From the NCBI RefSeq assembly GCF_003334305.1, contig NZ_QOWS01000017.1: a stretch of DNA of 64,000 nt, one strand, 5' to 3'. The notes under the pieces were generated by a model, which ran no database searches, was not told the DNA's origin, and was given only the letters and a program-made list of their open reading frames with translations. The position numbers and the translations under genes are program-made. Source of the DNA: Escherichia coli. GTDB taxonomy: Bacteria; Pseudomonadota; Gammaproteobacteria; Enterobacterales; Enterobacteriaceae. How positions within the stretch are numbered: the first letter of the stretch is position 1; the number at the start of each line of letters is the position of its first letter. Of this stretch, positions 29,874 to 47,405 are shown in pieces.

Positions 29874-29952
29874 GGAGACTCATCCTCAGACCGGCAAGCC
29901 AGGAAAAGGTCGCAGGAAAAACCGGCTTACTGTTTGTTTTTTTATATTTTAC

Positions 29953-30602: not shown

Positions 30603-30637
30603 TGATGCCCGCTCTGCAAAAAGTCCCTTTTTCTGGC

Positions 30638-30667
30638 TTGCCTTTTTCCGGCATTTGCGGATATAGT
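30638..30667 (+). promoter_or_regulatory. candidate PLE-like sigma70 promoter
   Basis: TTGCCT - 18 nt - TATAGT immediately downstream of vis, where P4 places its early/immunity promoter (recalled). Confidence 0.35.
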
Positions 30668-30991
30668 TTTTCCGTTGCCGCAAAATCGGCAGCCGGGCGT
30701 GAGAACCCGTGTAACTCGAAGGCGACATATGACGCGCCATGCGTCTTTTTTTGTGTCGCAATCAACGCCACAGAGCGCCAGATTATGGTGTGGCGTGTGG
30801 TTTGCCGTGCAGGTATGATCCTGTTCGCAATCGCATGTTATGCCACTGAGTCAATGGTAGCTCAGGCGGGGCAGCCTCCGGGCTGGCCGGTATTCTTCGA
30901 GGCCGGTATTCTCACCCCCGTCTGGGCTATCGCCATCGAGCGTGAGAACTCCGGCGATAGCAGTTATTTGCTACTCGAAGGAGGCTGCCTT

Positions 30992-31189
30992 ATGGCTACA
31001 ACCCTTACCCCCTCACACCCTGAATTTGTCTTTGTGTTTGCGGCTGTCCGTCGCGCAGACCGTCATCCCCGTATCTGCATGCTTCGCACCGTCGCCGGTG
31101 ATGAACGCAGCGCCCGCCGTTCCCTTGTCCGTGACTATGTGCTCTCCCTTGCTGCCCGTCTGCCGGTGGTGGAGGTGTCCCGTGCGTAA
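30992..31189 (+). CDS. Icd-like / P4 kil-region small protein
   Basis: 65 aa [45 protein letters not shown]... with a strong RBS gaaggagg 6 nt upstream. Resembles proteins annotated as Icd-like cell-division inhibitors in P4-like elements (recalled). Confidence 0.5.
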
Positions 31190-31469
31190 TAAAAAAGCCC
31201 CTCAGACCGTCTCAGCACGTCATGACGCCCGTGAACACCTCAGCATTGAGGCTTACCATAAGCTCAACCGCGCCAGCTCCGTATCCCAGTTTGTTGGGGG
31301 TGATTTGATTCACCGTGAACTCTCCGGCCTGCATCAGCTCTACATTCCGCATATTTTCAGCTACCTGAATGAAGATATTGATTTTGTGCTGAATGAGCTG
31401 AAAGCCAAAGGCCTGTGCCGCGATTTTCTCGCCCAGCAGAAAGACCGGGGAGACAGGACGCATGTTTGA
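31182..31469 (+). CDS. eps: Epsilon-like antirepressor (derepresses P2-type helper)
   Basis: 95 aa from a GTG preceded by ggaggtg. Position directly upstream of orf151 as in P4. Confidence 0.6.
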
Positions 31470-31917
31470 TTTTCCCCAGCCCGGTGAGATTTACCGTTCT
31501 GCCGGTTTTCCCGATGTGGCCGTGGTCGGCATTCTGGAAGACGGTATTCCGTGGGAAATGCCGTACCGCTGCCCGGACATTGTCTGGAACCCGTACCGCC
31601 GTAAATTCAGTATCCTTGTGCGTATCCTCGCTGACGGACGCACCACAGACATCCCGCTGGGGCGTTTTCTGCGGGAATTTACCTGTGACCGTCCTGACCT
31701 GTTTAAACGCAGCCCCGTAAACCGGCATGCGGTACTGAAAGAAATGGCCGGAGACCCGGAATTACAGAAATGGCGGGAAAAATATCTGGATATTTACCCG
31801 CAGGCCCCTGTTCCGGTCAGCCGGGCGGCACCGGTGGCGCGGGAATGGCGGGAAATTCCCCGCACGGAGCCTGACCCGGAAATCACCCCGGATAACAGTT
31901 ACCGCAATTATCTGTAA
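31462..31917 (+). CDS. P4 orf151-like protein
   Basis: 151 aa. The start overlaps the epsilon stop. Same length and position as P4 orf151. Confidence 0.65.
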   Translation: MFDFPQPGEIYRSAGFPDVAVVGILEDGIPWEMPYRCPDIVWNPYRRKFSILVRILADGRTTDIPLGRFLREFTCDRPDLFKRSPVNRHAVLKEMAGDPELQKWREKYLDIYPQAPVPVSRAAPVAREWREIPRTEPDPEITPDNSYRNYL

Positions 31918-32052
31918 TTAAAAAACGACACCCGAAAAATTAAATGTGCGTATTCGCGCAGGGATACGCACGTCTTCAGGAGACGCAGATATGCCTTATC
32001 AGTTAATGCAACCGGCACGGAATGCAGTCATCTGTCACAGGGAGGAAAGCAA

Positions 32053-32373
32053 ATGAAAACCCCCTTACCGCCCGTCTTACGCGCAGCCCTTTACCGTCGC
32101 GCTGTCGCCTGTGCCTGGCTGACCGTGTGCGAACGTCAGCACCGCTACCCGCATCTCACCCTTGAATCACTGGAGGCGGCCATCGCCGCTGAGCTGGAAG
32201 GCTTTTATCTGCGCCAGCACGGTGAGGAAAAAGGGCGTCAGATAGCCTGTGCCCTGCTGGAAGATTTAATGGAATCCGGCCCCCTGAAGGCCGCGCCGTC
32301 GCTGTCCTTTCTCGGGCTGGTTGTGATGGATGAACTCTGTGCCCGTCACATAAAAGCGCCGGTACTGCACTGA
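32053..32373 (+). CDS. conserved P4-family hypothetical protein upstream of alpha
   Basis: 106 aa with RBS gggagga. Same position, and as far as I recall the same length, as a P4 left-operon ORF. Confidence 0.55.
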
Positions 32374-32387
32374 AGGAGAACAACACC

Positions 32388-35184: not shown

Positions 35185-35205
35185 ACTCCTATTATCGGCA
35201 CCATC
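35185..35205. repeat. att core copy 2 (attR of P4-like element = attL of second island)
   Basis: Exact 21-bp copy of the thrW 3' end. Confidence 0.85.
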
Positions 35206-35270
35206 AAGAAAATCAATAACTTAGCTTAACTTCTCTAAGAAATTGTATCTTCTGTTATCACTTACAAACG

Positions 35271-35675
35271 CCTATACGTTGTTATGGGCTTTGGTAGTGT
35301 AACACGTATGGGCGAGTAGTTCCCAGGCTCAACCTCGTAACAAGTTCCTTTGAAGCTGGAAGACGTGCCACCGTCTCTAAACCTTCTACCAAAACTCTTA
35401 GCAAGATGTTCCACACCTGGCGCGGTGTCCAATGATGCTACACGTCGTGAGACGTTGCAGAGGATAAACAGGCTAAATGATGGGAAGAGTTTTAAGTGCA
35501 ATAGTGGATTAAAGCCCACCTCTTCAAAACCTAACTTGATCGGGAAAGAATCAAGCTCTAGCACGGTTTCGTCCACCGGAGTACAACGGGTGCCTGATAA
35601 GAGAAGAACTGCTAAGACTTCATAGCTTTTGTGAAAAAGCCCTTTTTAGTGGATACGCCTACGGCGCTTATTTTT
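35271..35675 (+). ncRNA. candidate structured non-coding RNA (class unknown)
   Basis: GC-enriched patch in AT-rich DNA. Contains a 13-bp hairpin (35271-35311), GUGA-capped hairpins (35442-35455 and 35625-35640), 6-bp helices (35484-35525 and 35535-35555), and a weak stem plus T6 at 35656-35676. The only ORFs here are two mutually antisense ones without RBS. Confidence 0.3.
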
Positions 35676-35808
35676 TGGTATAACCATCAAAGGCGCTTTA
35701 TGGCTCCTATTGTCTTGAAAATGTATCTTTACTTGTATTGTGTTTTATGCGTAGTCTCCCTGTGTAGTATGTAACTTGTTAATTTTCATATGAATACAGA
35801 GGCACACG

Positions 35809-35967
35809 ATGAAAAACATTGCAGCTATCAAACGGAATAACCGCAAGATTCACGCTCGTAAGTTCCTGTCTACGCCAGAAGGAAAAGCCTGGCTAGAGCG
35901 TAAACAGAGAGAAAACGAAGAAAGAAAACTCCTTAGTGAGTTGAAATGGCTTAGAGAGGATTTCTGA
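35809..35967 (+). CDS. small basic hypothetical protein (52 aa)
   Basis: MKNIAAIKRNNRKIHARKFLSTPEGKAWLERKQRENEERKLLSELKWLREDF. Weak RBS (gagg). Below the size cutoff of the ORF track. Confidence 0.3.
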   Translation: MKNIAAIKRNNRKIHARKFLSTPEGKAWLERKQRENEERKLLSELKWLREDF

Positions 35968-36310
35968 AAATCTCCAGAACGCAACAGGACGCATTCTAAC
36001 GCTGTTTTCATTACTCGGTATAGGGATTATAGGTGATGTGTGTTTAATGCGTCTGTGAGCTTGTTTTGTGCCTTATTTTGCATTTTCATAATGCAGGAGA
36101 GAACACGGAAAGCCTTAAAATTAATTATTGGGGTATTTAAGGCTATTTTTAGGTTATTTAAGGGTATTAAACTTGATTTAATTGATTGAAATATAAACAG
36201 ATAATTATGTATCTTATTGATTTATAAGGTTATTTTTAAATAAAGGTAAATAAAAAATAAATAGCCATAAATAGCTATAAATACATCTAAATACCTATAT
36301 CCCTTCCCTT

Positions 36311-36694
36311 ATGGCTAGATTGCGAGAAGTGCTTAACGCGATTTTCAGCGCCCCCCGATCTGGAAAATCCAGAATCCCCAAATATCAGCAAGGAATTTTC
36401 TTGCGTAATCAACATCGTTTTTACCTATTAAATCATTACACAGAAAGCCTTTCTGTAATGTCTCTCACTAAACTTTCACTAAACACGAGAATGATCGGTT
36501 TTATGTCGGATCAGATGCTAGAAATAGCACCACGTCTCACAAGGGCTGTAAGCGATGAAACCAGTGTTTATGCGGGTGCAGGTCAAAATATAGGCCAAAA
36601 TACATTTAACATAATAAACGTAATATGCACTAAGGAACACATAGAACGCCTTGAGTTGATGTATCAGGGGAAAAGTGGTGGATTTTTTACGTAG
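36311..36694 (+). CDS. hypothetical protein
   Basis: 127-codon ORF with no recognisable domain and no clear RBS. An internal start at MSLTKLSLNTR is possible. Confidence 0.3.
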   Translation: MARLREVLNAIFSAPRSGKSRIPKYQQGIFLRNQHRFYLLNHYTESLSVMSLTKLSLNTRMIGFMSDQMLEIAPRLTRAVSDETSVYAGAGQNIGQNTFNIINVICTKEHIERLELMYQGKSGGFFT

Positions 36695-36713
36695 GAGCAC
36701 GAGAGGGCTTCTA

Positions 36714-36741
36714 TTGACTTTTGTATGCTATGAAATATAAT
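36714..36741 (+). promoter_or_regulatory. candidate sigma70 promoter
   Basis: TTGACT - 16 nt - TATAAT. It overlaps the putative start of the 36730 ORF, so one of the two calls is probably wrong. Confidence 0.35.
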
Positions 36742-36999
36742 AGAAGGTTTTTTTATGTTGATAGTGATTGCACATTAAAGATTGAAAGCAAATTTAAACA
36801 TAAATTTTCAACACGTGAAAGAGAACTTGTTCGACAAATGATAAAACGTTTATTGAGCAACAATTTTGCAGTGATGCGCTATATGCCGAATTACACAAGG
36901 CTTTGCGAAAGTGATGTAAAAGTGAAGAAAGTAAGAATTGCAACTTTAAGCTACTTTTCATTGAATTTTTTAGTATGGAATTACACAGGAATAAGTTAG
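36730..36999 (+). CDS. hypothetical protein (doubtful)
   Basis: 89-codon ORF from ATG 36730. No domain recognised. The 3' end runs into the TTACAC motif field. Confidence 0.2.
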   Translation: MKYNRRFFYVDSDCTLKIESKFKHKFSTRERELVRQMIKRLLSNNFAVMRYMPNYTRLCESDVKVKKVRIATLSYFSLNFLVWNYTGIS

Positions 37000-37084
37000 G
37001 GATATTCTATGATTTACACAGGGAATATAGGGGGATTATGGCACACACATAGAAAGACATTACACAAAGTGCTATGTGACAAAT

Positions 37085-37305
37085 GGATGTAACGAGAGGT
37101 TACATTCAGCTATCTGAAATGCTCTCTGTAAGAAAGTTGGTAGTAACGATATGTTACATAGACTAATTATTGAATGTAACGATATTACACATCGGTAGTA
37201 ACGATACGTTACATCGACTAATTATTGAATGTAACGATATTACACATCGGTAGTAACGATACGTTACATCGACAGATGATTGGATGTAACGAAAGGTTAC
37301 ACAAT
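37085..37305. repeat. iteron array: 55-bp tandem repeats carrying GTAAC-N5-GTTAC palindromes
   Basis: Units at 37139-37193 and 37194-37248 differ at 2 positions. A third partial unit runs 37249-37302, with a further palindrome atgtaacgagaggttacat at 37087-37105. That makes about 7 palindromic or half-palindromic sites. Confidence 0.85.
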
Positions 37306-37500
37306 AAGACTATATTATTTATAATACTAAATAAAACTATATTAGATTATTAATTAGATCATAATAATATTCTTTATATCTATATATATGATCTTTTGCC
37401 TTCCGGCGTTAGCTTCACTCCCTGGCAAGCAGCCTTACTCCGCTACCTTTCGGGCTACGTTGGCTGGCCCGTTCCGCTCACACCGAAAGCAAAGCGTTAC

Positions 37501-37542
37501 TTTCTTCGTGTAACTATCGTGGCGGTAACGCCCACGAAGAAA
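37501..37542. other. long hairpin with GNRA-capped inner helix inside a GC-rich patch
   Basis: tttcttcgtg (37501-37510) pairs perfectly with cacgaagaaa (37533-37542). Inner ggcg-GTAA-cgcc at 37521-37532. Confidence 0.5.
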
Positions 37543-37624
37543 TACTATTGCGCTGTGCGCAGAAGAGTAATCACCTAACCAATCATAGATTGCTTATGTG
37601 TTAACTCTCTCTACCTCTTAATTC

Positions 37625-37776
37625 CACTTCCTACATTTAATAACTCTGTTATTCTCTGTAGTTGTGTAATTACTCGAAGAGAGAGCGGCTAAAGCTCAAT
37701 TACACTCTGCTTTCCTCGTGTAAGTTCACTAAGCCTCAATACAATTTCACTTCCTACATTCTGTAGTCGTGTAATT
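37625..37776. repeat. dispersed direct repeats (cacttcctacatt and ctgtagtYgtgtaatt)
   Basis: cacttcctacatt at 37625 and 37748. ctgtagttgtgtaatt at 37656 and ctgtagtcgtgtaatt at 37761. The modules are adjacent in copy B and 18 bp apart in copy A. Confidence 0.75.
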
Positions 37777-38398
37777 GTTTTCGGTGGAAAAGCCAGAGGC
37801 GACACCGAAAGAGAATTCTGATCTTATTAATCTTATCTATCTTAGTTAATCTTCTTACTTTATCTACTTTATTATTAATAATAGCTTTATAAGCTCTGTG
37901 TAGCTCTCTGACGCAAGAAACAGCATTCAGGAAGGGAATCACCTTAGAAAAGGTGTTCTTTGCGTCATAATGTGTTTTATGAAGGATTCAGAGGTGTTTC
38001 ATAACAGGAATGTATAGAGGATATTTTAATTAATTAAAAATAAGGGGTCTAAATGCTTCTCTAACAACATTAAGCAGGGTAGGGAATGGAAACGCATTGC
38101 CTACATATAATAAGCTCACTACAGGGCTTTACAGAGCGTTTTATAAAGTGACTCTCTGTTTTATATTTACCATTACCTTTTCATATACCTAACAAATACA
38201 AAATAAGCCCCTTCAATAAGCCTCTGGCGAGCGAAACAGCCATTAGATAAGGGAATGTATTGCTTTTATCAAAATCTCGTCAGAATGCGATTGAGAGTGT
38301 TTTAGCGGATAATGAAGAATAGCACTACATAGAAGAGCACGAATTGTTAAGCAAAATCATAACATACTGAAAAAGATCAGTTTTTTTGTGAAAAGGTA

Positions 38399-38427
38399 TT
38401 GACAAACGTCTCTTTCTGTGCAATAAT
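38399..38427 (+). promoter_or_regulatory. strong sigma70 promoter P1 (extended -10)
   Basis: TTGACA - 17 nt - TGcAATAAT, followed by agg-TATTAG-aGGGG. Paralogous to the promoter at 40928. Confidence 0.65.
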
Positions 38428-38486
38428 AGGTATTAGAGGGGACAGGAATAGATTCTTATCCTCTAAATAATTAAACCAATGCACCG

Positions 38487-38526
38487 CACTTTGAAGCCCA
38501 AGAGGCTTGCAAGGTGTTTTTTCTTT
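38487..38526 (+). terminator. intrinsic terminator ending the P1 leader
   Basis: Interrupted stem (acttt-g-aagcc / ggctt-gc-aaggt) followed by gTTTTTTCTTTT. Ends 29 nt before the first ATG of the operon. Confidence 0.6.
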
Positions 38527-38554
38527 TAACCAAATCGAATAAGGAGGCTAATTA

Positions 38555-38731
38555 ATGAAATATTTCACTCCACAGGATGTAGTAGAAGCCTGGAAACGTG
38601 GTGAGATCAACCGCTTTAAAGTAAGGATGTATAGAAACACCGCTCGCCGTTGTGGTTATCCAGAGCGTGAAAAATGTTTTGACGATGCACTGAAAATTAT
38701 TGATGAACTGCGTAAAGCTGAGAAAGAATAA
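38555..38731 (+). CDS. small hypothetical protein (58 aa)
   Basis: ATG preceded by aaggagg at optimal spacing. MKYFTPQDVVEAWKRGEINRFKVRMYRNTARRCGYPEREKCFDDALKIIDELRKAEKE. Missed by the 60-aa ORF cutoff. Confidence 0.55.
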   Translation: MKYFTPQDVVEAWKRGEINRFKVRMYRNTARRCGYPEREKCFDDALKIIDELRKAEKE

Positions 38732-38753
38732 TAGACAAGAGAAGGAGAAAACT

Positions 38754-38921
38754 ATGAGCGAAACTAAGAAACCAATTCCGCGCACTTACCTTCACGTTGA
38801 CCCTGAAATCTTCAAGGTTTTATTTGCTGAAGCCAAGAAAAGGCAAATTATGGTCAGTGATTTGATGTTAGAAATCATTACTGAAGCAGCAGAGAACATC
38901 AAACAAAAAAAGGGTAAGTGA
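38754..38921 (+). CDS. ribbon-helix-helix (Arc/CopG-like) DNA-binding protein
   Basis: 55 aa from the ATG after gaaggag. The pattern PRTYLHVDPEIFKVLFAEAKKRQIMVSDLMLEIITEAAENI fits strand-helix-helix. Confidence 0.5.
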   Translation: MSETKKPIPRTYLHVDPEIFKVLFAEAKKRQIMVSDLMLEIITEAAENIKQKKGK

Positions 38922-38974
38922 TCCTCATTCACTTTAGTAGCGCATTAAGCGTGATTTATAAGGAGATGATTCTA

Positions 38975-39718
38975 ATGTCTAAAATTAAATTGATTCGTGA
39001 AAAATACCAGTATGTTGATAAACAAACAGGAGAAATTAAAGACCGAACTTTGAATATACCGCATTACTTTTGTGAGATTGAATTTATCTACTCCTCAAGT
39101 GTTGATGGTGGAAAAGTTAAGTTTAGTGCAGAAATGCAAAAATTATATTGCTATGTTTCAGATTGGGAGAAATCAGGGGGGATATGTTTTGAAACACAAA
39201 CGAAGTTAAGTAAAGTTTGTGGCTGTAGCCGTAAGACAGTTAATGAACTGATTGGTCTTATGATTAAAATCGGTCTTTTAGAAGAGGTCGGAGAACGAAT
39301 TCCAAAACGTCCTTTAAAATTACGTGCGCTACCTCTCACAGATGCACATATTACTCCCCCAGGAGAATCATCACTCTCTGATCTTTCTGAGGCAGAAGAA
39401 GCACAGGAACAACCTAAAGGCCATAAACAGCCTTCTTTTGATGTTCTTGATGATTGGGATGCGCCTTTACCGTGGGAGACGGAAGAAACACCTGTTTCAT
39501 CAAGTGAAAAGGTAGCTAATGATAATGAGGAGGATGTATTAGAGAATTTTGCCTCTCTTATCATCCAGGAGAAACACACAAGAACAGGAGGAGCATCATT
39601 TATTGAGTTTGCAAATTCACTAGCTTATAGATACGGGCTAAAACGACCAAATGGTATTGAGGCATATTTTTCTAAGAATTACCCAAATGTATATGATGAA
39701 TTTGATATTCCCTTTTAA
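38975..39718 (+). CDS. wHTH replication-initiator-like protein with acidic linker
   Basis: Start after taaggag. The segment LYCYVSDWEKSGGICFETQTKLSKVCGCSRKTVNELIGLMIKIGLLEE resembles HTH_36-type plasmid/phage Rep N-domains (recalled pattern). Has an acidic D/E/S-rich middle. Confidence 0.45.
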   Translation: MSKIKLIREKYQYVDKQTGEIKDRTLNIPHYFCEIEFIYSSSVDGGKVKFSAEMQKLYCYVSDWEKSGGICFETQTKLSKVCGCSRKTVNELIGLMIKIGLLEEVGERIPKRPLKLRALPLTDAHITPPGESSLSDLSEAEEAQEQPKGHKQPSFDVLDDWDAPLPWETEETPVSSSEKVANDNEEDVLENFASLIIQEKHTRTGGASFIEFANSLAYRYGLKRPNGIEAYFSKNYPNVYDEFDIPF

Positions 39719-39729
39719 TAAGGAGGACT

Positions 39730-40009
39730 ATGATTCAATATTTAGTAAAAAAATCAAGTAGACAGAATTCAGTGTAATGACACAGGAAAACGCATCTACG
39801 AAACACTTGCTTACCTCTATAAAGGAAAGCCAACACCGCTAAAATATAGCGATGTGTTACATCGAGCAGGGTGCTCTGAAGCTGGTTTAAAATTCTGGCT
39901 GAAACAGCTATCAAATTTCGGTGTTATTGAAATGAAAGAGCTGTCTTTTTCTACATTCAATCTCAAAAGATTAGATAAAGAAATAGAATTCATCTATTCC
40001 ACTCTCTAA
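39730..40009 (+). pseudogene. wHTH protein gene interrupted by a frameshift in an A7 run (or using programmed slippage)
   Basis: Strong RBS taaggagg then ATG 39730. The frame closes at 39777. The +1 frame stays open to 40009 and encodes ...GKRIYETLAYLYKGKPTPLKYSDVLHRAGCSEAGLKFWLKQLSNFGVIEMKE. The switch point is A7 at 39747-39753. One fewer A gives a continuous 92-aa ORF. Confidence 0.5.
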
Positions 40010-40050
40010 AATCTCTCTATGTAATTAAAATATAAAAGGAAAACATTATT

Positions 40051-40170
40051 ATGATAGTAGCTATGTATTGGTTATTGTTCTTTCTCACGTTAGAAGCATA
40101 CTTTGGGGTGTTTTCCTTTAAAAGAAAAGGAAAAGTAAATAATGGCAAAAAGAAAAAACAACGTTGTTAA
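40051..40170 (+). CDS. small hydrophobic peptide with polybasic tail (39 aa)
   Basis: MIVAMYWLLFFLTLEAYFGVFSFKRKGKVNNGKKKKQRC: one TM helix plus a K-rich tail. RBS-like aagga 10 nt upstream. Overlaps the next ORF by 29 nt. Confidence 0.3.
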   Translation: MIVAMYWLLFFLTLEAYFGVFSFKRKGKVNNGKKKKQRC

Positions 40171-40558
40171 GAAAATCGGTGATTCAGCTTCTCTTCTAAG
40201 TAAACCTAAACCTAAATCTATTCTAAGACGTAAAGACTTTAAAGAGCTAGTTACGCTCACCAAGCAAAATAGCGCCCCTGGCGAATGGAAAACAGAGATC
40301 ATAGAACATTCTCCCTCTGTGCCTTGTGGAGATGAATTTAACGCCTTGCAAGAAATCTTATCTTCAACACCTGGCGTATTCTGGAAACCTAGAAAAAGAA
40401 AAGAGTATATCGTTGATAGCTCTGATTTACGCAAATACCAGATTTTAGGATTTGAAGATTATAACCACTACGTCGGTTATCTCGCCACCAATGGCCTAAA
40501 TAATTTAGTTCCTGAATTCCAAATTTTAGATAATGCTGATCACTATGGAGACTTTTAA
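40142..40558 (+). CDS. hypothetical protein with basic N-terminus
   Basis: 138 aa in the same orientation as the operon. No domain recognised. Confidence 0.5.
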   Translation: MAKRKNNVVKKIGDSASLLSKPKPKSILRRKDFKELVTLTKQNSAPGEWKTEIIEHSPSVPCGDEFNALQEILSSTPGVFWKPRKRKEYIVDSSDLRKYQILGFEDYNHYVGYLATNGLNNLVPEFQILDNADHYGDF

Positions 40559-40559
40559 T

Positions 40560-40898
40560 ATGAACAAAAACACGTATGACACAATTTATTCACTAATTAA
40601 TTATTATGAGGATGATTACCTCCTGCCTTTAAACCGCGCTGAACTTGAAGCATACAAAGAAAACACGCCAGGGGCGCTAAATGAGGCGTTTAAACACTGG
40701 GATTTAGCTGTGAATGCCTTTGAGCACCTTTCTAAAAGAGTAGAGATGCTCTGTAAGCGTGAAAACGCATACCTGACAGCCGATCAGATATGGGAGCTAT
40801 CAAACTGGATAGAAGATATTGAATCTGATGTTCGCTATGTAGGGGATGGCCTGGTTGAATTAGCTCAACGCTTAGGCGCTACTATCACAGAAGAATAA
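40560..40898 (+). CDS. hypothetical protein
   Basis: 112 aa from an ATG 2 nt after the upstream stop. Helical and acidic. No domain recognised. Confidence 0.5.
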   Translation: MNKNTYDTIYSLINYYEDDYLLPLNRAELEAYKENTPGALNEAFKHWDLAVNAFEHLSKRVEMLCKRENAYLTADQIWELSNWIEDIESDVRYVGDGLVELAQRLGATITEE

Positions 40899-40927
40899 AA
40901 AAAGCAACAAAAAAGTTGTAAAATATC

Positions 40928-40956
40928 TTGACATTCCATCTATTGTATGTTAATAT
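40928..40956 (+). promoter_or_regulatory. strong sigma70 promoter P2 (extended -10)
   Basis: TTGACA - 17 nt - TGtTAATAT, followed by aat-TATATA-GGGG. Same layout as P1. Confidence 0.65.
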
Positions 40957-41094
40957 AATTATATAGGGGTGATTATTTTTCCTTTATTGGTTCGATATTA
41001 AAAATTCTTCCTGTCATTAAAGGGGAGTAAAATCTCCGCTCCCCGCTTCTCCTCCTTAAGTAAATACTGTGTCATTATACCTCTTTTTTCCTTT

Positions 41095-41124
41095 GTTATG
41101 CATACATCTTGGAGTATGCATAAC
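41095..41124. other. perfect 10-bp inverted repeat in the P2 leader
   Basis: gttatgcata-catcttggag-tatgcataac. Confidence 0.6.
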
Positions 41125-41153
41125 ATAGGGTAATTACATAGGTATGAGTTAAT

Positions 41154-41185
41154 AAAAGGCGGCTCTAAATGCTGCCTTTTATTTT
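41154..41185 (+). terminator. intrinsic terminator ending the P2 leader
   Basis: aaaaggcggc-tctaaat-gctgcctttt (10 bp including one G-U) followed by ATTTT. Ends 63 nt before ATG 41248. Confidence 0.65.
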
Positions 41186-41247
41186 GCCCGTTATGCAACT
41201 TAAAAGTTGTATTTCTTACTTTAAAAAAGGTAACAAGGTTTATATAA

Positions 41248-41460
41248 ATGTTGTTTTTAAACGATAAAGAGCAAATCATCAAGTATAAAGATGAAATGCT
41301 GAAAATTAATCCACAAATTACCGAAATGGTAGCTAAATACGCTGGGTGTTCTGTCGAGGAAGTAGAAAGATGTGTTGAAAAATATTTTTCTCCTTCTACT
41401 CCGTCTACACCTTCCCTTAATGAATTAATCAAATTAAAAGCTAAGGAGATTACTAAATGA
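41248..41460 (+). CDS. small hypothetical protein
   Basis: 70 aa. First gene after the P2 leader. The stop overlaps the next start (ATGA). Confidence 0.5.
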   Translation: MLFLNDKEQIIKYKDEMLKINPQITEMVAKYAGCSVEEVERCVEKYFSPSTPSTPSLNELIKLKAKEITK

Positions 41461-41819
41461 TTATTGATTTAGACACTCTGTTTCCAGTTAGAAAGACTTT
41501 CACAGATATTGTAAGTTATTGTACTGATCCGTTTGCCTCTGTAGAAAGCAAGGTTTTTGCTTCTCTTCCTGCTGATGTTGAGTGCGGCGACTTGATCACC
41601 AGTACTGGCGCTAAATATGAATCAGGAGATGATATCTATGTTGTTATGAGTGAATTTGTAACGGCTGGAGAAAACAAGCCTGTAGATGTGCTACGTAGTA
41701 ATGCTGGTCTTGTCTGCATCAAAGCTGATGCGCTGAATGCTGTAAGTGAAGCAGCAAAAACAGCATTAATTAAAAAAGGCTTCCAGCTTGAAGGGTTCCA
41801 TTCTGTTTTCACTTCTTAA
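41457..41819 (+). CDS. head-decoration-like protein (lambda D-like position and size)
   Basis: 120 aa directly upstream of the capsid-like gene. The size and G-rich beta-type pattern loosely resemble lambda gpD-type decoration proteins. The call is based on synteny. Confidence 0.4.
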   Translation: MIIDLDTLFPVRKTFTDIVSYCTDPFASVESKVFASLPADVECGDLITSTGAKYESGDDIYVVMSEFVTAGENKPVDVLRSNAGLVCIKADALNAVSEAAKTALIKKGFQLEGFHSVFTS

Positions 41820-41837
41820 TAAAAGGAATAATAATAA

Positions 41838-42869
41838 ATGATTCTAGGTAATGATTACGTTGATTTAGCTCCGCTTTTCCAGGCACACAGCACTAGAAAC
41901 TTTCTGCTCTCTACCCTCGACTTCACTGATCCGGTGGGCGTTAGTTCTCATAAAGTAGCTGTTTCTCAGCTTGTCGAAAGCAACGAATCTCTGTTCAACA
42001 AAGAAACCTCTCGTTTCTCTTCTGAACACAATGTTACTAAGCGTGAACAAGGTAAAGAATGGCTGATTGAAATCCCGTATTTTCTTCGTGAAGATGTGAT
42101 CCGTCCTTCTGATGTTCAAGGCAAGCGTAAGCCTGGCACTGATTTTCAGGAAACACTCACTGATATCTATGCGGAATATATCGCTAAACACCACGTAGCG
42201 TATCAGCGTACAAAAGAGAGCGTGTTGGCTGCATCTCTGTTTAGCGGTAAAACTTACACGCCTAAAACTGATGATGTTCTTATCGAGTGGGGCAAGCTGT
42301 TTAACGTGGCACCTATGAAAGCCACCTTGAACGCTTCCAGCACTGACACAATGACCGTTTTCAAGCAATTTGACCAGCTTGCTACGGATATGATTGCTAA
42401 GGCACAAAACCAGGCTGCAACCATTGAGCGTGTTGTTGTGTTCTGTAAACCTGCGGCATTCAACGCTATTCGTTACAGTGTTGGTATGGTCAATGCTTTC
42501 CAATATGCAAGCCCTGTAGACGATGCCAACGTGGTGTTTAATGTGCGTTCCCTGCTACCAGGTGTAACTACTTTCACCATTCCAGGAACTAACATTGACC
42601 TGATCAAAGTGACTGATCCGCTACACCTTGCACATATGGCTTCTGATGCGGTTGCTGTGCCTAAATTCGCTAAGGGGGCAGGTGTTTACCAATCTATCTA
42701 TGGGGCAGCTTCCAGCACCTTTGAACTGATCAATGCCGCTCCTGCTGAGGTGTATAGCTATAGCTATGAATCTTCTTCTCGTGGTGATGCTGTTAACGTT
42801 GTTACAGAGAATAGCCAGATGGTGGTAAACCACGGCGTTGGTTTCTCCGTTCAAATCACTGTTAAATAA
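41838..42869 (+). CDS. major capsid protein, lambda gpE-like family (putative)
   Basis: 343 aa (lambda gpE is 341 aa). N-terminal LAPLFQAHSTRNFLLSTLDF resembles the P.TFLLDTFF motif I recall from Phage_cap_E proteins. RBS aaaggaa. Followed by a strong terminator. Confidence 0.5.
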   Translation: MILGNDYVDLAPLFQAHSTRNFLLSTLDFTDPVGVSSHKVAVSQLVESNESLFNKETSRFSSEHNVTKREQGKEWLIEIPYFLREDVIRPSDVQGKRKPGTDFQETLTDIYAEYIAKHHVAYQRTKESVLAASLFSGKTYTPKTDDVLIEWGKLFNVAPMKATLNASSTDTMTVFKQFDQLATDMIAKAQNQAATIERVVVFCKPAAFNAIRYSVGMVNAFQYASPVDDANVVFNVRSLLPGVTTFTIPGTNIDLIKVTDPLHLAHMASDAVAVPKFAKGAGVYQSIYGAASSTFELINAAPAEVYSYSYESSSRGDAVNVVTENSQMVVNHGVGFSVQITVK

Positions 42870-42887
42870 TATTTTAACGTGTAATAG

Positions 42888-42922
42888 AGGCGTGGCGTGA
42901 ATAACACGCTTCGCCTTTTTTT
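42888..42922 (+). terminator. intrinsic terminator after the capsid-like gene
   Basis: aggcg-tg-gcgtg aataa cacgc-tt-cgcct followed by T6. Confidence 0.7.
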
Positions 42923-42955
42923 ATTTATTTTTAAATTTTGAGAGGTGATTAAAAT

Positions 42956-43159
42956 ATGGAAGTGATTCTGAAATCAAAAAATGGTGTACACGTTTATTTA
43001 GATGCTAATGATTCAAGAGGCTTGTTAAATCTGAAATATCTATGTTCTCTCTTGGATGTTCCATATGAAGGCGTAAAAGCCCGAATGTTCAGATTAAACG
43101 AGAGTATTGATCAAGCTCTACACCATTTCTTAAGCAAAGAAGGTGGTAAAAATGATTAA
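42956..43159 (+). CDS. small hypothetical protein (possible HTH)
   Basis: 67 aa with RBS gagagg. The segment LKYLCSLLDVPYEGVKARMFRLNESIDQAL looks HTH-like. Confidence 0.45.
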   Translation: MEVILKSKNGVHVYLDANDSRGLLNLKYLCSLLDVPYEGVKARMFRLNESIDQALHHFLSKEGGKND

Positions 43160-43173
43160 TAAGGGGATTTTAA

Positions 43174-45012
43174 ATGTTAGAAATTAACACTTCTAAAATT
43201 AAGAACACAGTAACATTTAGTGTAGATAAAGACAGCTTGAAAAAAGCGAAAGACTCTATTACAGGCTTAAAGGAATTCACAGAAAACATCAAGCCAGCTA
43301 AATTAAGGTTTGATAGTGTCACTAAAGGCTATAAGAAAGCACAAAGCGAAGTAGACAAGATTGCTCAACAGAAAGCTAAAACAGAAAAGCAGAATCAAAG
43401 AGCACAAGCTGCCGCAGCAAGAGCACAGGCAAGGCAACAGACACAAATAGCAGCACGTAAAGAGAAAGCAGAATTAAAGCTCCTCGATGTGTCAAGCTCT
43501 ATCAGTGCAATGCACCGCCTCTCTGTAGCGGAACAATACAAAGCTATTGCACAGGCTAGAGAGATAGCAAAACAATATGAGCAAGGGGCTATCTCGCTTG
43601 CACGTATGAATAGTCAGATGAAACGCCTACAACAGCAACAACGTAAGATTAATGGCAACAGAAAAGCTCAATTAGCCCCCGTTAAGGGAGGAGGATCAGG
43701 GAATTCCGCCACGATGGGTGCTCTGTTATTTGGAGGCGCTACAGCGGCTGCTGGCGTGATGGCTGTTAGTAAAGCGTCGGAGTTTGTTAGTAACAGTTTC
43801 GCTAACGCAGAGACACAAGGTGAGCTAATTCAACGTGCAAGGCTTGGCGGTGTAGACGTTAACCAGATGTACAACATTACAGAATGGGCCTATAGAAACG
43901 GCGTTGACTCTATGATGGGTGATCAAGGGGCTAGGAAATACCTGGATCAGATGAAAGATGTTAGGGAACGTGCCGCAAAATCCTATAGTGAAGCTGAATA
44001 TGTAGTCGATAAAAAAACTGGTAAAGGCGGCGAATGGAAAGGCGGTGATAACGCTATTAATGAACTTCTAAACATCGGTGTTATTAACAAGAGCGACCTT
44101 AAAAAATTTGCTGATAATCCAGCCGGATTAATTTCTAAGGCTGTTAATGGAATGATGAAAAAAGGGTTTTCAGACTCCCAAATTGGACAACGTTTAGAAG
44201 ACCTGGGTGATGATTTGATGCTTACATCAAAATATTGGCAACGTTCCGTTAAAGATGTACAAACAAGCATCGAGCAGCAAAAAGCCTCTGGAAAATGGCT
44301 AACAGAAACACAGCAAGATTCTATTGTTAAATTCAGAGAACTAAACAGACAGCTTTCACAGCTTTCTGATGCAAGACAAGTAGCATTTGTAGACGGCTTT
44401 ATGAAATCTCTCGATCCAAAAGTAACGGAAGAGTTTATGAAAAACCTTTCTAATCTCACTCCGTATTTTACAAAGCTGGGAGAAGCTACAGGAAGTCTCT
44501 TTGAAGCTATTATGAAGATTGTAAACTGGTTTAATCGTAATGATGATAAGACAGATGCTATTCAGAAAAATTTAGGTGATGCACCGCCATTAAGCAATGA
44601 AGGAATGAAACAGAATCTTTCTAATCTCGTTCCTGATCAATATAAAGGCGCTGGCACCGGAACAACTAAGCCAGATAACAGCAATTCCCTGTTTAACACT
44701 ATTAAGGGATTGCTTTTCGATGATAAGTCTTCTTCTGTGTCAGATGTAAAAATGTCAGTCAGCGAAGCACCGATAACCAATCTCAAACAGGGCGCTTTAA
44801 ATAATCTTGCAATGACAACTCCGGCTTATAATTTATCTCCTGTGTTTAATCTGAATCCTACATTTGAAGTGGTAACAGAGGTTCCTCTTACTATTAATTC
44901 TGACACATCAAGATTAAGCGATTATGTGGATTTTACAGCGAGATCAAGTCGGGATAGCTTCTTGAAATCATTAACATTAACCAGCTTATCAGGACAATCT
45001 AACGGCGGGTAA
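43174..45012 (+). CDS. tape-measure-like protein
   Basis: 612 aa. N-terminal Q/A/K-rich coiled coil, Gly-rich hydrophobic segment GGGSGNSATMGALLFGGATAAAGVMAV, then a long helical region. This composition is typical of tail tape measure proteins. Confidence 0.45.
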   Translation: MLEINTSKIKNTVTFSVDKDSLKKAKDSITGLKEFTENIKPAKLRFDSVTKGYKKAQSEVDKIAQQKAKTEKQNQRAQAAAARAQARQQTQIAARKEKAELKLLDVSSSISAMHRLSVAEQYKAIAQAREIAKQYEQGAISLARMNSQMKRLQQQQRKINGNRKAQLAPVKGGGSGNSATMGALLFGGATAAAGVMAVSKASEFVSNSFANAETQGELIQRARLGGVDVNQMYNITEWAYRNGVDSMMGDQGARKYLDQMKDVRERAAKSYSEAEYVVDKKTGKGGEWKGGDNAINELLNIGVINKSDLKKFADNPAGLISKAVNGMMKKGFSDSQIGQRLEDLGDDLMLTSKYWQRSVKDVQTSIEQQKASGKWLTETQQDSIVKFRELNRQLSQLSDARQVAFVDGFMKSLDPKVTEEFMKNLSNLTPYFTKLGEATGSLFEAIMKIVNWFNRNDDKTDAIQKNLGDAPPLSNEGMKQNLSNLVPDQYKGAGTGTTKPDNSNSLFNTIKGLLFDDKSSSVSDVKMSVSEAPITNLKQGALNNLAMTTPAYNLSPVFNLNPTFEVVTEVPLTINSDTSRLSDYVDFTARSSRDSFLKSLTLTSLSGQSNGG

Positions 45013-45046
45013 TTCCCGCCATAACATTACAAGGAAAATTATTATT

Positions 45047-45760
45047 ATGGCGACCGCCGGGATTTTAACCATACGTGCAGCAAATACTCCAGAACAACAC
45101 GTTCAGGCTGTTTACAAAGCAGAACAAGATATAAATTCTACAAAAAACGAAAATAGCAAAGCTAATAAAACAAAAGGAGAGAACGGATTTGCTATTGTTA
45201 CCAGTGGCTTGGCATCTTCTGGCAATGACGTTTATGAAAATTATATGGCCCTGGCCTTTGACAGTGTAGACGATGTGAACGTGAGACGTTCGGCAGATGT
45301 CACAAGCTACCCCGTAGAAAATGGTGCTACTGTGTCTGATCACGTTCAAATTAAAAACAATAAGTTTTCTCTTAAAGGAAGGATCACTGAAACACCGATT
45401 AAAAGCGATCCTGGCTTGTTAAAGAGTGCAGGGGTGAACGGGAACAGAAGATCATTAGCCATAGACTACTTGAATCAGATTATGGACAGTAGACAGCCTT
45501 TTCTTCTTGTTACAGAAAATAAAACTTTTGAGAACGTTGTTTTAACAGGCATCGAATACACAGAAGAGGCAAGCGAATCCCTGGTATTTGATCTTAGCTT
45601 TGAGCAGATCAGATTAGTTTCTTATGGCACTGTATCCACTATTGCACTTAAAACACAACCATCTAAGAACATCGGGGCGAATATGAAAAAACGTGTTAAC
45701 ACTGAAAAATCAAGTAGTGAAGGTGAAGACACTATTACTCCTGCCTTTAAGCAGAAATAG
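45047..45760 (+). CDS. putative virion (tail-lumen / tube-initiator-like) protein
   Basis: 237 aa directly after the TMP-like gene. The motif VTSYPVENGATVSDHVQIKNNKFSLKGRITE recalls the (H)EYPGRD..VEDLG...S..G pattern of Mu gp43-type tail proteins. The resemblance is weak. Confidence 0.3.
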   Translation: MATAGILTIRAANTPEQHVQAVYKAEQDINSTKNENSKANKTKGENGFAIVTSGLASSGNDVYENYMALAFDSVDDVNVRRSADVTSYPVENGATVSDHVQIKNNKFSLKGRITETPIKSDPGLLKSAGVNGNRRSLAIDYLNQIMDSRQPFLLVTENKTFENVVLTGIEYTEEASESLVFDLSFEQIRLVSYGTVSTIALKTQPSKNIGANMKKRVNTEKSSSEGEDTITPAFKQK

Positions 45761-45801
45761 CCGTAAACGCCTCTAAAACGCTCTGTAACGATGTAATTAT
45801 A

Positions 45802-45834
45802 AAAGAGGCTGCCAATCTATGTTGAAGCCTCTTT
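45802..45834. terminator. bidirectional hairpin between convergent genes
   Basis: aaagaggct - 15 nt - agcctcttt, a 9-bp perfect stem between the 45760 stop and the integrase stop. Confidence 0.55.
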
Positions 45835-45841
45835 ATTGTGT

Positions 45842-47206
45842 TTATGGCGTTGTTTTACGCCTTAAATTTGATTTTTTATTGATTGATAAGCCTTTCTCTA
45901 TTTCAGGGTAGCGTAGAAGCTCAATATAGTTTTTAAGCTCTACTGGAGAAGCTGCATTCTTGCTATATGTGCGGAATGTCTCTGTATTGCCGCGTGTATG
46001 GCCCAGGAGAAGGGCGATCCTGTCTTCTGGAATTTGATTTCGATCAAGAAGCTGTGCTACTCCGTGTCTCAGAGAATGAAACACTTTCCTTTCTGTTCCC
46101 TTTTCCCCTAAAGCCTTTCGTTTAGCTCTTGTAAATCTCTGCGTGTGCCACGTGGAACGTTTACCATCAGCACGCTCTGTAATGCTGGCGTGATAGAACA
46201 AAAAGCCATTATGAGGCTTTTCACGCAGCGACAACACCAACGGAGTGATAAGGCTATGTACAGGCACAACACGTGCCGCAGCTTTCGTTTTTCCCTGTGT
46301 GATTTCAAAACACAGCACACCTTCGATCTCTTTCACATCGTCTATTGTGAGACTTGCTATCTCATTGATCCGCATACCTGTATATAAACCGATAAGACAC
46401 AAAGCCATCATTTCTTTGTTTTCTGCTGAATTACCGGAAAATACTTGCAACACCTGCAATAGCTCTTTGTTAGAAAATGCCTCGTAGCTCTCTCTACTTT
46501 GTGCCACATCAAGCCTATGCCCTCGCCAGGGGGAGAGCGCCCTTTCTGGCGCATCGTGGTAACGTGATGAAGCTAACTCCCATAGCTGGGCTATTGGGCT
46601 GATATAATTTGCAATTGATTGTTGTGAAAGAGTTTTTTGCATGTGTTCTATCCAGCCTGTAACAGTGGTGCGGCTCACATCTTGCAATGCAATATCAGGC
46701 TTTTTACGGTAGGAGAGAAACATCTCTACCGCTTTTCTTGCCTTAGCTAAAGTGGCTGGCTTCTTCTTCGTGCTGTTAATTGTCAGGTAGATTTCAAGAA
46801 TTTTAAGCAATGACGGACACGAAGACGCTGTATCTTGCATTCTGGTAGCTGTTTTGGCGTATTTAGCCTTACTGCGTAACAGCTCCAGCGTGTTCTCTAT
46901 TGTGCTGTTTACAGGGGCGACACTCTCCCGTAGGCAATGGTATTCATCTGCAATCTGATCACGCTTTCTACGTGCAACACGAAGATTATTTGTGTGTAGA
47001 CTTCTGACAAACGTCCTTTTTCCTTCAAAAAAGGGCTGCATATACACAGGCAGCGTGATCCTTAAATAGTAGTTACCGTAAGAATCACAGATTAAGTATT
47101 GGTTAGGCTTGTATCTCATAAAATCTCCGGCTAAAGTGTCGGAGCGTTTGTAATGTGAAAATTGATTGTAACGCATAGAAAATGATAATTTTTCTATAAG
47201 ATTCAA
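45842..47206 (-). CDS. tyrosine recombinase/integrase of the second island (K-12 IntF-like position)
   Basis: 454 aa. Catalytic R (TGMRINEIASL), HxLRH (FHSLRHGVAQLL) and HTRGNTETFRTYSK (H...Y). N-terminal YYLRITLPVYMQPFFEGKRTFVRSLHT arm-type domain. Adjacent to the thrW-like fragment, as intF-ptwF is in K-12 (recalled). Confidence 0.85.
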   Translation of the reverse strand: MNLIEKLSFSMRYNQFSHYKRSDTLAGDFMRYKPNQYLICDSYGNYYLRITLPVYMQPFFEGKRTFVRSLHTNNLRVARRKRDQIADEYHCLRESVAPVNSTIENTLELLRSKAKYAKTATRMQDTASSCPSLLKILEIYLTINSTKKKPATLAKARKAVEMFLSYRKKPDIALQDVSRTTVTGWIEHMQKTLSQQSIANYISPIAQLWELASSRYHDAPERALSPWRGHRLDVAQSRESYEAFSNKELLQVLQVFSGNSAENKEMMALCLIGLYTGMRINEIASLTIDDVKEIEGVLCFEITQGKTKAAARVVPVHSLITPLVLSLREKPHNGFLFYHASITERADGKRSTWHTQRFTRAKRKALGEKGTERKVFHSLRHGVAQLLDRNQIPEDRIALLLGHTRGNTETFRTYSKNAASPVELKNYIELLRYPEIEKGLSINKKSNLRRKTTP

Positions 47207-47217
47207 TCAATTAGTAA

Positions 47218-47280
47218 TGGTCGTAGGTGATGGCATTAACACGAGATTAATCGAGTGTTTTACTCCTATTATCGCACCAT
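47218..47280 (+). pseudogene. thrW-like tRNA 3' fragment / degenerate att core copy 3 (ptwF-like)
   Basis: ggtcgtaggt (as thrW 23328-23337), then 34 nt of unrelated sequence (47228-47261), then actcctattatcg-caccat (thrW 3' end with a 1-nt deletion). Confidence 0.65.
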
Positions 47281-47405
47281 TAAAATCAAAGAGTTACCCC
47301 ATATTTAAATACACCACGTTTCCTCCTGTGCCGCATTTGTGCCATTGTAACCTTGGCAATTCATCAAAATACTGTTCTGACATCAGGCAGTGCAGGTGCA
47401 GCTAT

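Follow-up and report, generated by a model that had tools for sequence, protein, structure and literature searches.

What is the AT-rich segment at positions 35185-47280 of the Escherichia coli stretch analysed here (64,000 nucleotides of contig NZ_QOWS01000017.1, assembly GCF_003334305.1; "the window" in the following), which lies between two copies of the thrW 3' end and encodes an integrase, a capsid protein and a tape measure protein? An earlier note on this DNA had read the segment of 12.1 kb as a helper-dependent phage satellite and had named siphophages as candidate helpers. The first part of this proposal is still the best reading, as the element has a terminal-repeat site of helper type, tail genes of helper type and DNA exchanged with helpers. 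The second part had to be given up, since tblastn, the homology to gp134 and gp135 of phage phi92 and blastn point to large virulent myoviruses of the Stephanstirmvirinae. From these sequence comparisons we consider it probable that the element represents a new family of integrative satellites of the Stephanstirmvirinae, virulent myoviruses of 147 kb such as the phi92/phAPEC8 group. For the copy in the window a phi92-like Justusliebigvirus would be the best explanation of the helper. The gene annotation was taken from the RefSeq record of E. coli A7 (NZ_CP028767.1), which is identical to the window, and the copy is called the A7 copy below.

The left 3.3 kb of the element, left without an interpretation in the earlier note, are poor in open reading frames (ORFs), yet hold the key cis elements, namely a mimic of a phage terminal-repeat boundary and the iterons. 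A blastn comparison of this part with 50,697 phage records gave matches in Stephanstirmvirinae only. Two sites resemble the ends of phi92:

36314-36390, minus strand: mimic of the helper terminal-repeat boundary and candidate packaging/terminase site, core at 36320-36359
38032-38053, minus strand: 22-bp match (21 of 22 positions) to the right-end non-coding region of phi92 at 147334-147355, weak evidence

The core is identical in 39 of 40 positions to phi92 318-357 on the opposite strand. The direct terminal repeat of phi92 is annotated by its depositor at 1-343, and the motif straddles the inner end of the repeat (343), where the mature right genome end arises. Order and orientation of 38032-38053 and the mimic are those of the phi92 concatemer junction. 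The blocks ATTGCGAGARGTGCTTAACGCGATTTT and CCCAAATATCA recur in Stephanstirmvirinae of other hosts, namely Klebsiella phage phi1_175008, where they lie close to the left end, and Citrobacter phage Tr1. Among the 22 E. coli elements sampled, 15 carry a perfect 24-nt motif core, and the flank containing the motif is the best-conserved part of the element (97.5-98.5% identity between copies versus ~94% elsewhere). The subfamily represented by locus L042, whose capsid protein is 80% identical, lacks the phi92-type motif and has instead a stretch of 83 bp with ~81% identity to the same region of Phapecoctavirus. In these phages the counterpart is located, e.g., at 273-357 of WPEC4 and WPEC6, and at both genome ends where the records include both repeats. 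In Klebsiella and Enterobacter elements one or two collinear pieces match the left-terminal region of a Klebsiella phage of the Stephanstirmvirinae. The motif hence tracks the likely helper genus. It is likely the recognition or cut site of the terminase on the satellite, with a cut predicted by analogy between 36333 and 36334. At the sequence level the element carries a likely helper packaging signal, as the general definition of a phage satellite demands.

Two observations concern the surroundings of this site. A 127-aa ORF (36311-36694) starts exactly at the mimic, and phage record PQ360875.1 has a hypothetical coding sequence annotated over the equivalent phage sequence; like all antisense ORFs it was judged spurious, having no family match and no annotation in RefSeq, and it is probably no gene. 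A short minus-strand gene with a Phage_integrase domain (185-205 aa; L042:4015-4572, L015:4166-4726, L011:2968-3585 and L014:3576-4133), found in most members of the family other than those of the A7/APEC O1 type, adjoins the mimic in L042, lies a few hundred bp away in L015 and L011 and is absent from the A7-type left arm. Multimer resolution and end processing are possibilities for its role.

The virion genes lead to the same phages. Pfam, PHROGs and NCBIfam searches in every frame of the element detected no terminase, portal, protease, sheath, tube, baseplate wedge, fibre or lysis protein, in accordance with the gaps already seen in the earlier note. The capsid and tail genes present, with their accompanying features, are:

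41248-41460, plus strand: conserved helical protein, 70 aa, first in the capsid operon, 43% identical in Enterobacter
41457-41819, plus strand: candidate capsid decoration/cement protein, 120 aa, in the position of phi92 gp123
41838-42869, plus strand: major capsid protein, HK97 fold, Phage_cap_E, 343 aa (Pfam 53 bits, cut-off 22.9; phrog_29)
42894-42910, plus strand: intrinsic-terminator-like hairpin 3' of the capsid operon
42956-43159, plus strand: small protein, 67 aa, in the position of phi92 gp133
43174-45012, plus strand: tape measure protein, 612 aa (phrog_16051 4e-54; PDB Phi92_gp134 2e-38)
45047-45760, plus strand: tail tube initiator (Dit-like), 237 aa (Pfam Dit_like 4e-29; PDB Phi92_gp135, 21vq_N, 3e-78)

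These matches bear out the gpE-like capsid protein and the tape measure protein of the earlier note, and its 237-aa "virion-like" protein can now be specified as tail tube initiator, which also matches the "tube initiator" chains 9cuy_K and 7yfz_a of two other myoviruses in the PDB. With the tape measure protein as query, tblastn found only virulent Stephanstirmvirinae myoviruses of ~147 kb (phi92, other Justusliebigvirus and Phapecoctavirus). Its identity to phi92 gp134 is 26% over the whole length, and the extreme C-terminus is alignable as well. With 612-622 aa in E. coli, Klebsiella and Enterobacter elements versus 651-659 aa in the phages, it is ~40-47 aa shorter than the helper counterparts. 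The initiator is 53% identical to the Phapecoctavirus homolog and closer to phi92 gp135, as detailed below. The same local gene orders occur in the late region of phi92, where gp123 (decoration) precedes gp124 (capsid) and gp133 (75 aa) is followed by the tape measure gene gp134 and gp135; BLASTP revealed no similarity of the 120-aa protein to gp123 or of the 67-aa protein to gp133. The major capsid protein itself is only distantly related to those of phi92 and phiWec188 (20-25% identity, E 1e-7 to 1e-13).

For the 120-aa protein the label "D-like", after lambda gpD, could not be kept. It has no sequence relatives outside this element family and none in a PDB profile search, and its AlphaFold model is of low confidence (predicted local distance difference test, pLDDT, 58.6). 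Foldseek retrieved chains of ~124 aa from the capsids of Bas63, Sf14 and PhiTE (E 2e-3 to 0.2), of which only the top matches, small chains in myovirus capsid maps, were used as weak support. The weak fold match is thus to myovirus capsid decoration proteins, and the protein may at best be of the decoration type known from Felix-O1/Sf14-like capsids. A scaffold-like role of the 70-aa helical protein is a guess.

The likeness to the phages is highest where contacts with partner proteins are to be expected: the first 66 residues of the tape measure protein are 55% identical to the phi92 counterpart, and the initiator is 61% identical over 205 residues. This would also suit an anti-phage defense island, in which decoy tape measure, initiator and capsid proteins poison the assembly of phi92-like phages and which spreads rarely or by other means; an element devoid of portal and terminase fits such a role. 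Pure defense, however, needs no genus-matched mimic of the boundary of the helper's terminal repeat. It likewise needs no capsid and decoration pair held under purifying selection across genera, and no inducible replicon with rapidly swapping Rep and iterons. Such a replicon is part of the satellite that we propose:

37084-37303: iteron array and candidate origin, 55-bp period, five perfect GTAAC-N5-GTTAC palindromes and additional half-sites
37304-37390: AT-rich stretch beside the iterons, candidate DNA-unwinding element, read from the sequence
38754-38921, plus strand: ribbon-helix-helix (RHH)/Arc-like protein, 55 aa (Arc-like phrog_582 at 0.025, weak)
38975-39718, plus strand: Rep-like initiator, 247 aa, with a swappable N-terminal winged helix-turn-helix (wHTH) domain (residues ~1-120) and a conserved C-terminal domain
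39764-40009, plus strand: second wHTH gene (92-93 aa in relatives), without ATG, GTG or TTG start in A7

Together with a sixth site with one mismatch elsewhere in the window, six matches to the palindrome were reached in 0 of 100 shuffles. The RHH and wHTH Rep-like assignments made earlier are favored by their context, while profile support is weak (for Rep, HTH_36 at 1.5e-4 and O-like initiator phrogs at 1e-6). The second wHTH gene is intact (92 aa) in APEC O1, ST866 and L036. The A7 gene has no start codon and is probably inactive; the A7 copy of the element may in this respect be partly defective.

When the A7 copy is aligned with those of APEC O1 and ST866, the alignment fails in two segments only, one being the iteron region and the other ~120 codons at the start of rep. 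The C-terminal Rep domains of A7 and APEC O1 are ~95% identical; the N-terminal wHTH domains are barely related. A survey of 22 E. coli loci and the Enterobacter locus L015 distinguished five types of Rep DNA-binding domain that co-vary with five iteron types:

A7 type Rep (4 loci): GTAAC-N5-GTTAC, 3-5 copies
APEC type Rep (10 loci): TAGGTCAnnGTGAGCTA, 2-7 copies
L009/Enterobacter type Rep (L009 and L015): TACCCCTATCAA, 4-5 copies
L036 type Rep (L036): ACCTAGGAAATGATTTCC, 3 copies
L042 type Rep (L042): AACAG-N5-CTGTT type, 5 copies

The type of Rep predicts the type of iteron, a pattern typical of an initiator and its origin, with the iterons as candidate binding sites of the wHTH domain. In APEC O1 and ST866 (L020:3350-3870 and L021:3570-4010) mixed iteron families were observed, of the TAGGTCA, ACCTAGGAA and TACCCCTATCAA types together with a few GTAAC-N5-GTTAC sites, which look like relics of past replicon swaps or decoys.

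The same Rep domains are found in the proposed helpers. Positions 38742-39367, comprising the RHH gene and the first 131 rep codons, are 97.6% identical at the nucleotide level to phage inny, a Justusliebigvirus. The inny_184 protein (L006:4233-5336, 367 aa) is 88% identical to the A7 Rep over residues 1-145 and near-identical over the first ~125; a second HTH_36 domain follows, and then a C-terminal nuclease domain of the MUG113/GIY-YIG clan (phrog_681 "endonuclease", 4e-18), relatives of which are annotated as GIY-YIG or homing endonucleases. Phage muut encodes gp094 (L022:2732-3730), the C-terminal 245 residues of which are 92% identical to inny_184, while its first domain shares 66% of the amino acids with the Enterobacter-type Rep and the locus 86% of the nucleotides with the E. 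coli element L009. In gp053 of Mt1B1_P17 (L023:2414-3400) the first domain is 99.2% identical in nucleotides to the rep start of L042 and L043. The second wHTH domain of all three proteins is 93-97% identical in nucleotides to the Rep domain of L036 and L039. The nucleases of these three phi92-like phages are hence built from a variable first satellite-type domain, a constant second domain of L036 type and a shared MUG113/GIY-YIG-like nuclease; full-length versions occur in four phages only. For the APEC-type Rep domain, the commonest in E. coli, no counterpart exists among sequenced phages. Nucleotide identities of 97-99% show that, in whichever direction DNA was transferred, elements and phages at present recombine within the same cells. 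The architecture suggests that one phage nuclease may target two satellite origin types.

As to the neighboring gene, the RHH protein is 100% identical to inny_185 (L006:4013-4195; 53 aligned residues) and to muut gp095 (L022:2513-2680; 55 residues); the phage copies may have been carried along with the Rep domain, or they may serve the phage to repress the satellite.

Nucleases that evolved against the element imply that it harms phages, as a defense island would. Satellites often double as defenses, and PLE of Vibrio cholerae, an element resembling phage-inducible chromosomal islands, does both; the roles in defense and transduction are compatible, and a purely defensive island is in our opinion unlikely. 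Another objection accepts the satellite and ascribes the shared DNA-binding domains to shuffling by homing endonucleases instead of an anti-satellite system, since putative homing endonucleases of this nuclease family are frequent in T5-like and other phages. We regard this as quite improbable in view of three independent phage alleles, each with a different satellite Rep domain next to the common second one (86-99% nucleotide identity to E. coli elements, 66% amino acid identity to the Enterobacter Rep), of the pairing of the shared domains with specific iterons in the satellites, and of a precedent of exactly this build, the nuclease Odn of phage ICP1 (PMC8263062). Experiments have shown Odn, a nuclease of the T5orf172/GIY-YIG kind whose N-terminal domain shares 42% identity with the RepA of PLE, to cut the PLE origin in an iteron-dependent manner and to select for replicon swaps (PMC8263062). 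The phage nucleases described here show an Odn-like architecture, i.e., an N-terminal DNA-binding domain resembling the satellite Rep fused to a nuclease of the GIY-YIG/T5orf172 superfamily.

The earlier note had regarded the element as intact although not an autonomous phage, and both points were borne out. Megablast detected at least 80% of the 12-kb element in 227 of 5,426 complete E. coli genomes at ~93-94% identity, among them APEC O1 and ST866, in which it is located directly at thrW. Homologs of the capsid protein with 39-64% identity are encoded on chromosomes of Klebsiella, Enterobacter, Citrobacter, Cronobacter, Dryocola, Sodalis and Serratia; a scan of genome contigs with one element protein returned close relatives only. 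The Klebsiella, Enterobacter and Sodalis loci that were read share the order small protein, RHH, Rep, ~93 aa, ~130 aa and ~114 aa, then ~70 aa, ~120 aa and capsid protein, then ~62 aa and tape measure protein (615-650 aa), and end in a reversed DUF6538 integrase gene. Variable in the relatives are the replication module (HTH_36, DUF6945 or a helicase-like protein of 485 aa) and the left-arm cargo (Dam, HNH or the recombinase-like gene of 185-205 aa). Copies from E. coli and Sodalis encode the tube initiator. Between A7 and APEC O1 the ratio of nonsynonymous to synonymous substitution rates (dN/dS) is 0.06-0.17 in 10 of 11 genes compared, and the RHH gene has no amino acid change; the element genes compared are under purifying selection. 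The unit is accordingly kept as such in E. coli and in further genera of the Enterobacterales and does not consist of scattered prophage fragments.

The tRNA hot spot with other elements alongside, the lost start codon of 39764-40009 in A7 and the ORF-poor left 3.3 kb might be expected of a decaying cryptic prophage, the remainder of a temperate relative of phi92-like phages, kept by chance or for one useful gene and devoid of its own life cycle. This explanation is very improbable, because 227 E. coli genomes as well as other genera have retained the same 12-kb gene set, dN/dS is low, the ORF-poor part is the best conserved and contains organized cis elements, and the exchange with living phages, at 97-99% nucleotide identity, represents a current interaction. 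Known temperate Stephanstirmvirinae were considered as well and none matched. A contig of 9.4 kb from a metagenome-assembled genome named "Bacillota bacterium" (L010, JAEWTL010000083.1) has an A7-type element that includes the GTAAC iterons and the phi92-type motif; E. coli DNA was most likely misbinned here.

Several findings weigh against a satellite of phi92-like phages and have to be set against the evidence above. The phi92-type core is absent from 7 of the 22 E. coli elements sampled, and a single boundary is mimicked; for the outer (left) end of the phi92 terminal repeat, whose coordinates are those of the depositor, a search of the element gave no counterpart. Assembly on the helper's portal and scaffold is only assumed, because the capsid protein is no more than 20-25% identical to that of the helper, and profile searches identified no scaffold or protease in the element. 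The satellite's need for a tape measure protein of its own lacks an explanation, and the Klebsiella and Enterobacter copies have no tube initiator. No free 12-kb form was found: metagenome contigs of 11-13 kb with the capsid gene have chromosomal flanks, and the capsid-gene matches in IMG/VR are prophage calls from isolate genomes. Helper-specific late promoters were sought, but phi92 and the element alike use host-like TTGACA/extended -10 sequences; the element's promoters are silent on helper dependence because they resemble those of host sigma-70, as do those of phi92.

If the element is nevertheless taken as a satellite, the following cycle can be proposed. It would reside at thrW by means of its own tyrosine integrase and, upon infection by a helper, be derepressed and excised, with candidate control points in the RHH protein, the small proteins and the capsid-operon leader with its terminator. 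Replication would start at the iteron origin, where the wHTH Rep might recruit replication enzymes of host or helper. The major capsid and decoration-type proteins would form a shell of the satellite's own on the helper portal, presumably small and fitting 12 kb, into which the helper terminase would package the DNA after cutting at the copy of the inner-end sequence of the terminal repeat. Sheath, tube, baseplate and fibers would come from the helper, the tail being primed and measured by the satellite's initiator and tape measure protein. Some helpers would counter with the chimeric GIY-YIG/T5orf172-type nucleases, presumably cutting the satellite origin, and we propose that such cutting favors variants with exchanged Rep domain and iterons. 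In this scheme induction, the assembly of small capsids on the helper portal and packaging at the motif are inferred, and so are the function of the satellite's tape measure and initiator proteins and the cleavage of the origin by phage nucleases. To our knowledge tail hijacking, that is the swapping of a helper's tape measure and tube initiator, has been described for no satellite. We see about an even chance that the full picture applies, a widespread undescribed Enterobacterales satellite family of phi92/phAPEC8 myoviruses with its own small capsid, with tape measure and initiator replaced in the helper tail and with a PLE/ICP1-like arms race involving two-domain nucleases.

The candidate control regions are found ahead of the two main operons:

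38399-38427, plus strand: near-consensus sigma-70 promoter with extended -10, ahead of the regulatory/replication operon
40928-41247, plus strand: strong sigma-70-type promoter (40928-40956, extended -10) and structured leader of 290 nt, ahead of the capsid operon

The capsid-operon leader folds far better than its shuffles (z = -5.5) and includes a terminator-like hairpin at 41155-41186, which suggests control of the operon by antitermination.

RefSeq lists 13 plus-strand genes in the element and one integrase gene on the reverse strand. The arrangement described earlier, with a tyrosine integrase gene at the distal end opposite to all others, was found again in this annotation and in the Pfam matches (Phage_integrase and DUF6538). 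The remaining genes are:

35809-35967, plus strand: conserved hypothetical ORF, 52 aa, WP_000788777.1, identical in A7, APEC O1 and ST866, no family match
38555-38731, plus strand: conserved small protein, 58 aa, 38% identical in the Enterobacter relative
40142-40558, plus strand: conserved protein with basic N-terminus, 138 aa, widespread and diversified in Klebsiella, Enterobacter and Raoultella elements
40533-40898, plus strand: conserved protein, 121 aa (112 aa from the RefSeq start)
45842-47206, minus strand: tyrosine integrase with DUF6538, SAM-like and catalytic domains (425 aa from the RefSeq start at 47119)

For the 138-aa protein the AlphaFold model (pLDDT 55, predicted template modeling score, pTM, 0.26) was too poor for a structure search. 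NCBIfam gave a match for the integrase and none for the remaining element genes, an Rfam scan gave no meaningful match, and PADLOC had no match for four element proteins.

The boundaries of the element are as follows:

35185-35205, plus strand: attL, exact copy of the 21-bp thrW 3' end, doubling as right junction of the P4-like satellite upstream
47262-47280, plus strand: attR, degenerate copy of the thrW 3' end lacking one base, present in K-12 as ptwF

Both had been seen in the earlier note and both were found again. The tRNA-Thr(CGU) gene thrW extends from 23283 to 23358, and the 21-mer ACTCCTATTATCGGCACCATC, comprising its final 19 bases and two further ones, has exactly two sites, 23340-23360 and 35185-35205; 0 of 100 shuffles matched this exact recurrence. 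The degenerate copy ACTCCTATTATCGCACCAT equals the thrW 3' copy minus one G. The GC content is 0.34-0.43 over 35-46 kb versus ~0.5-0.6 in the flanks. At 47218-47230, ~30 bp upstream of the degenerate att copy and parted from it by unrelated sequence, GGTCGTAGGT repeats ten bases of the thrW T-arm; it is not common to K-12 and may be a piece of the element's attP or due to chance. The P4-like satellite postulated between thrW and 35185 is annotated in the identical RefSeq record (23523-34721; int, psu, delta, sid and alpha genes). Between its integrase gene and psu it carries as cargo (24694-28016) a complete Gabija system (PADLOC: GajA 1e-253, GajB 3e-229), and this AT-rich cargo is the cause of a GC dip at 24-28 kb.

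The idea that the element could be an intact relative of the core of the K-12 cryptic prophage CP4-6 was abandoned. Both occupy the same chromosomal site (thrW to ptwF/yagP), and the ptwF fragment with its flank is 98.6% identical; the DNA in common is, however, confined to this fragment and the chromosomal flank (47262-47400). The gene orientation is opposite and YagJ-YagN have no tblastn match in the element. The integrase, considered as a candidate IntF ortholog and rejected, is 24% identical to IntF over 162 aa of the catalytic domain only.

E. coli satellites known so far (P4-like elements, PICIs or phage-inducible chromosomal islands, and their capsid-forming kind, cfPICIs) exploit temperate phages. 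If our interpretation is true, the element provides a tractable E. coli counterpart of Vibrio PLE-ICP1 and could partly account for strain-level resistance to therapy-relevant phages; ~4% of the complete genomes of E. coli contain a near-complete copy, and Klebsiella is rich in relatives. Detection tools for satellites would gain a new type of gene set (capsid, decoration and tape measure with or without tube initiator), and a natural experiment on the setting of capsid size and contractile-tail length would become available. The 40-bp site would pinpoint the likely terminase recognition or cut site of myoviruses with direct terminal repeats, which has been poorly defined so far. The two-domain phage nucleases, again if true, extend the Odn principle and could serve as programmable sequence-specific nucleases.

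How does the element compare with known satellites? It has the genes generally ascribed to phage satellites, an integrase as well as Rep and iterons, and its virion gene set is incomplete. The earlier assessment that this gene set lies outside the described families was upheld against the gene-content definitions of P4-like elements, PICIs, cfPICIs, PLEs and PICMIs, in all of which the combination of a capsid shell without portal or terminase with tape measure and tube initiator is missing. A full-text literature search of incomplete coverage found no description of the element, so that an earlier description is possible.

With P4-like elements it shares the size of ~12 kb, the tRNA-gene site, a decoration-type protein and, as proposed, packaging via a copy of the helper's terminase site and a small capsid. 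Of the P4 core set (psu, sid, delta/ogr, alpha primase-helicase, epsilon and P2-type cos), Pfam, PHROGs and NCBIfam revealed nothing in 35185-47280; the neighboring element has it according to the RefSeq annotation. P4 reshapes the capsid protein of P2, a temperate helper with cos ends rather than direct terminal repeats. Classical PICIs of the Gram-negative type, which have int, alpA, pri-rep and genes for capsid size or terminase redirection but no structural genes of capsid or tail, are set apart by the capsid, tape measure and tube-initiator genes of the element, in which no AlpA or primase domain was found. The cfPICIs are likewise integrative and have an HK97-fold major capsid protein of their own, with tail parts taken from the helper, as we propose here. 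Their head and packaging functions are complete (portal, protease/scaffold, connectors, small terminase), and tail genes are absent. Our element has capsid and decoration-type genes only, in addition tail-internal genes, and virulent candidate helpers, and the absence of portal, connectors and small terminase separates it from the cfPICI family as described. PICMIs are, in the part of their description used here, minimal islands of Vibrionaceae without structural or capsid-remodeling genes (PMC10803314); by this definition the structural genes place the element elsewhere. The Streptomyces satellites MiniFlayer and MulchMansion are helper-dependent and encode their own encapsidation proteins, but hosts and sequences are unrelated, and the portion of the description consulted reports no tape measure or initiator genes (PMC10690885).

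Differences from PLE are found in several components. The element has a tyrosine integrase and a Rep of the HTH_36/O-like class, which exclude it from this family; PLE uses a large serine recombinase and has a RepA_N initiator and TcaP among its other core genes. PLE remodels the coat protein of ICP1 with a scaffold, whereas the element has its own capsid and decoration genes, tape measure and tube initiator genes, and Enterobacterales as hosts. No homology to PLE genes was seen, PLE proteins not having been compared directly, and the likeness is one of function. Both are integrative satellites of a virulent myovirus, as proposed for the element, with an iteron origin and with variants that differ by swaps of the N-terminal DNA-binding domain of Rep. 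Both would rely on the helper for the terminase and most virion parts, which the gene set implies for our element. Both have helpers with a chimeric GIY-YIG/T5orf172-type nuclease that copies the DNA-binding domain of the satellite Rep (PMC8263062). The phage nucleases found here differ from Odn by two tandem satellite-type domains and by an identity of up to 99% at the nucleotide level, compared with 42% at the protein level for Odn. In function the element is thus closest to PLE, and in its need for a small capsid closest to cfPICI and P4.

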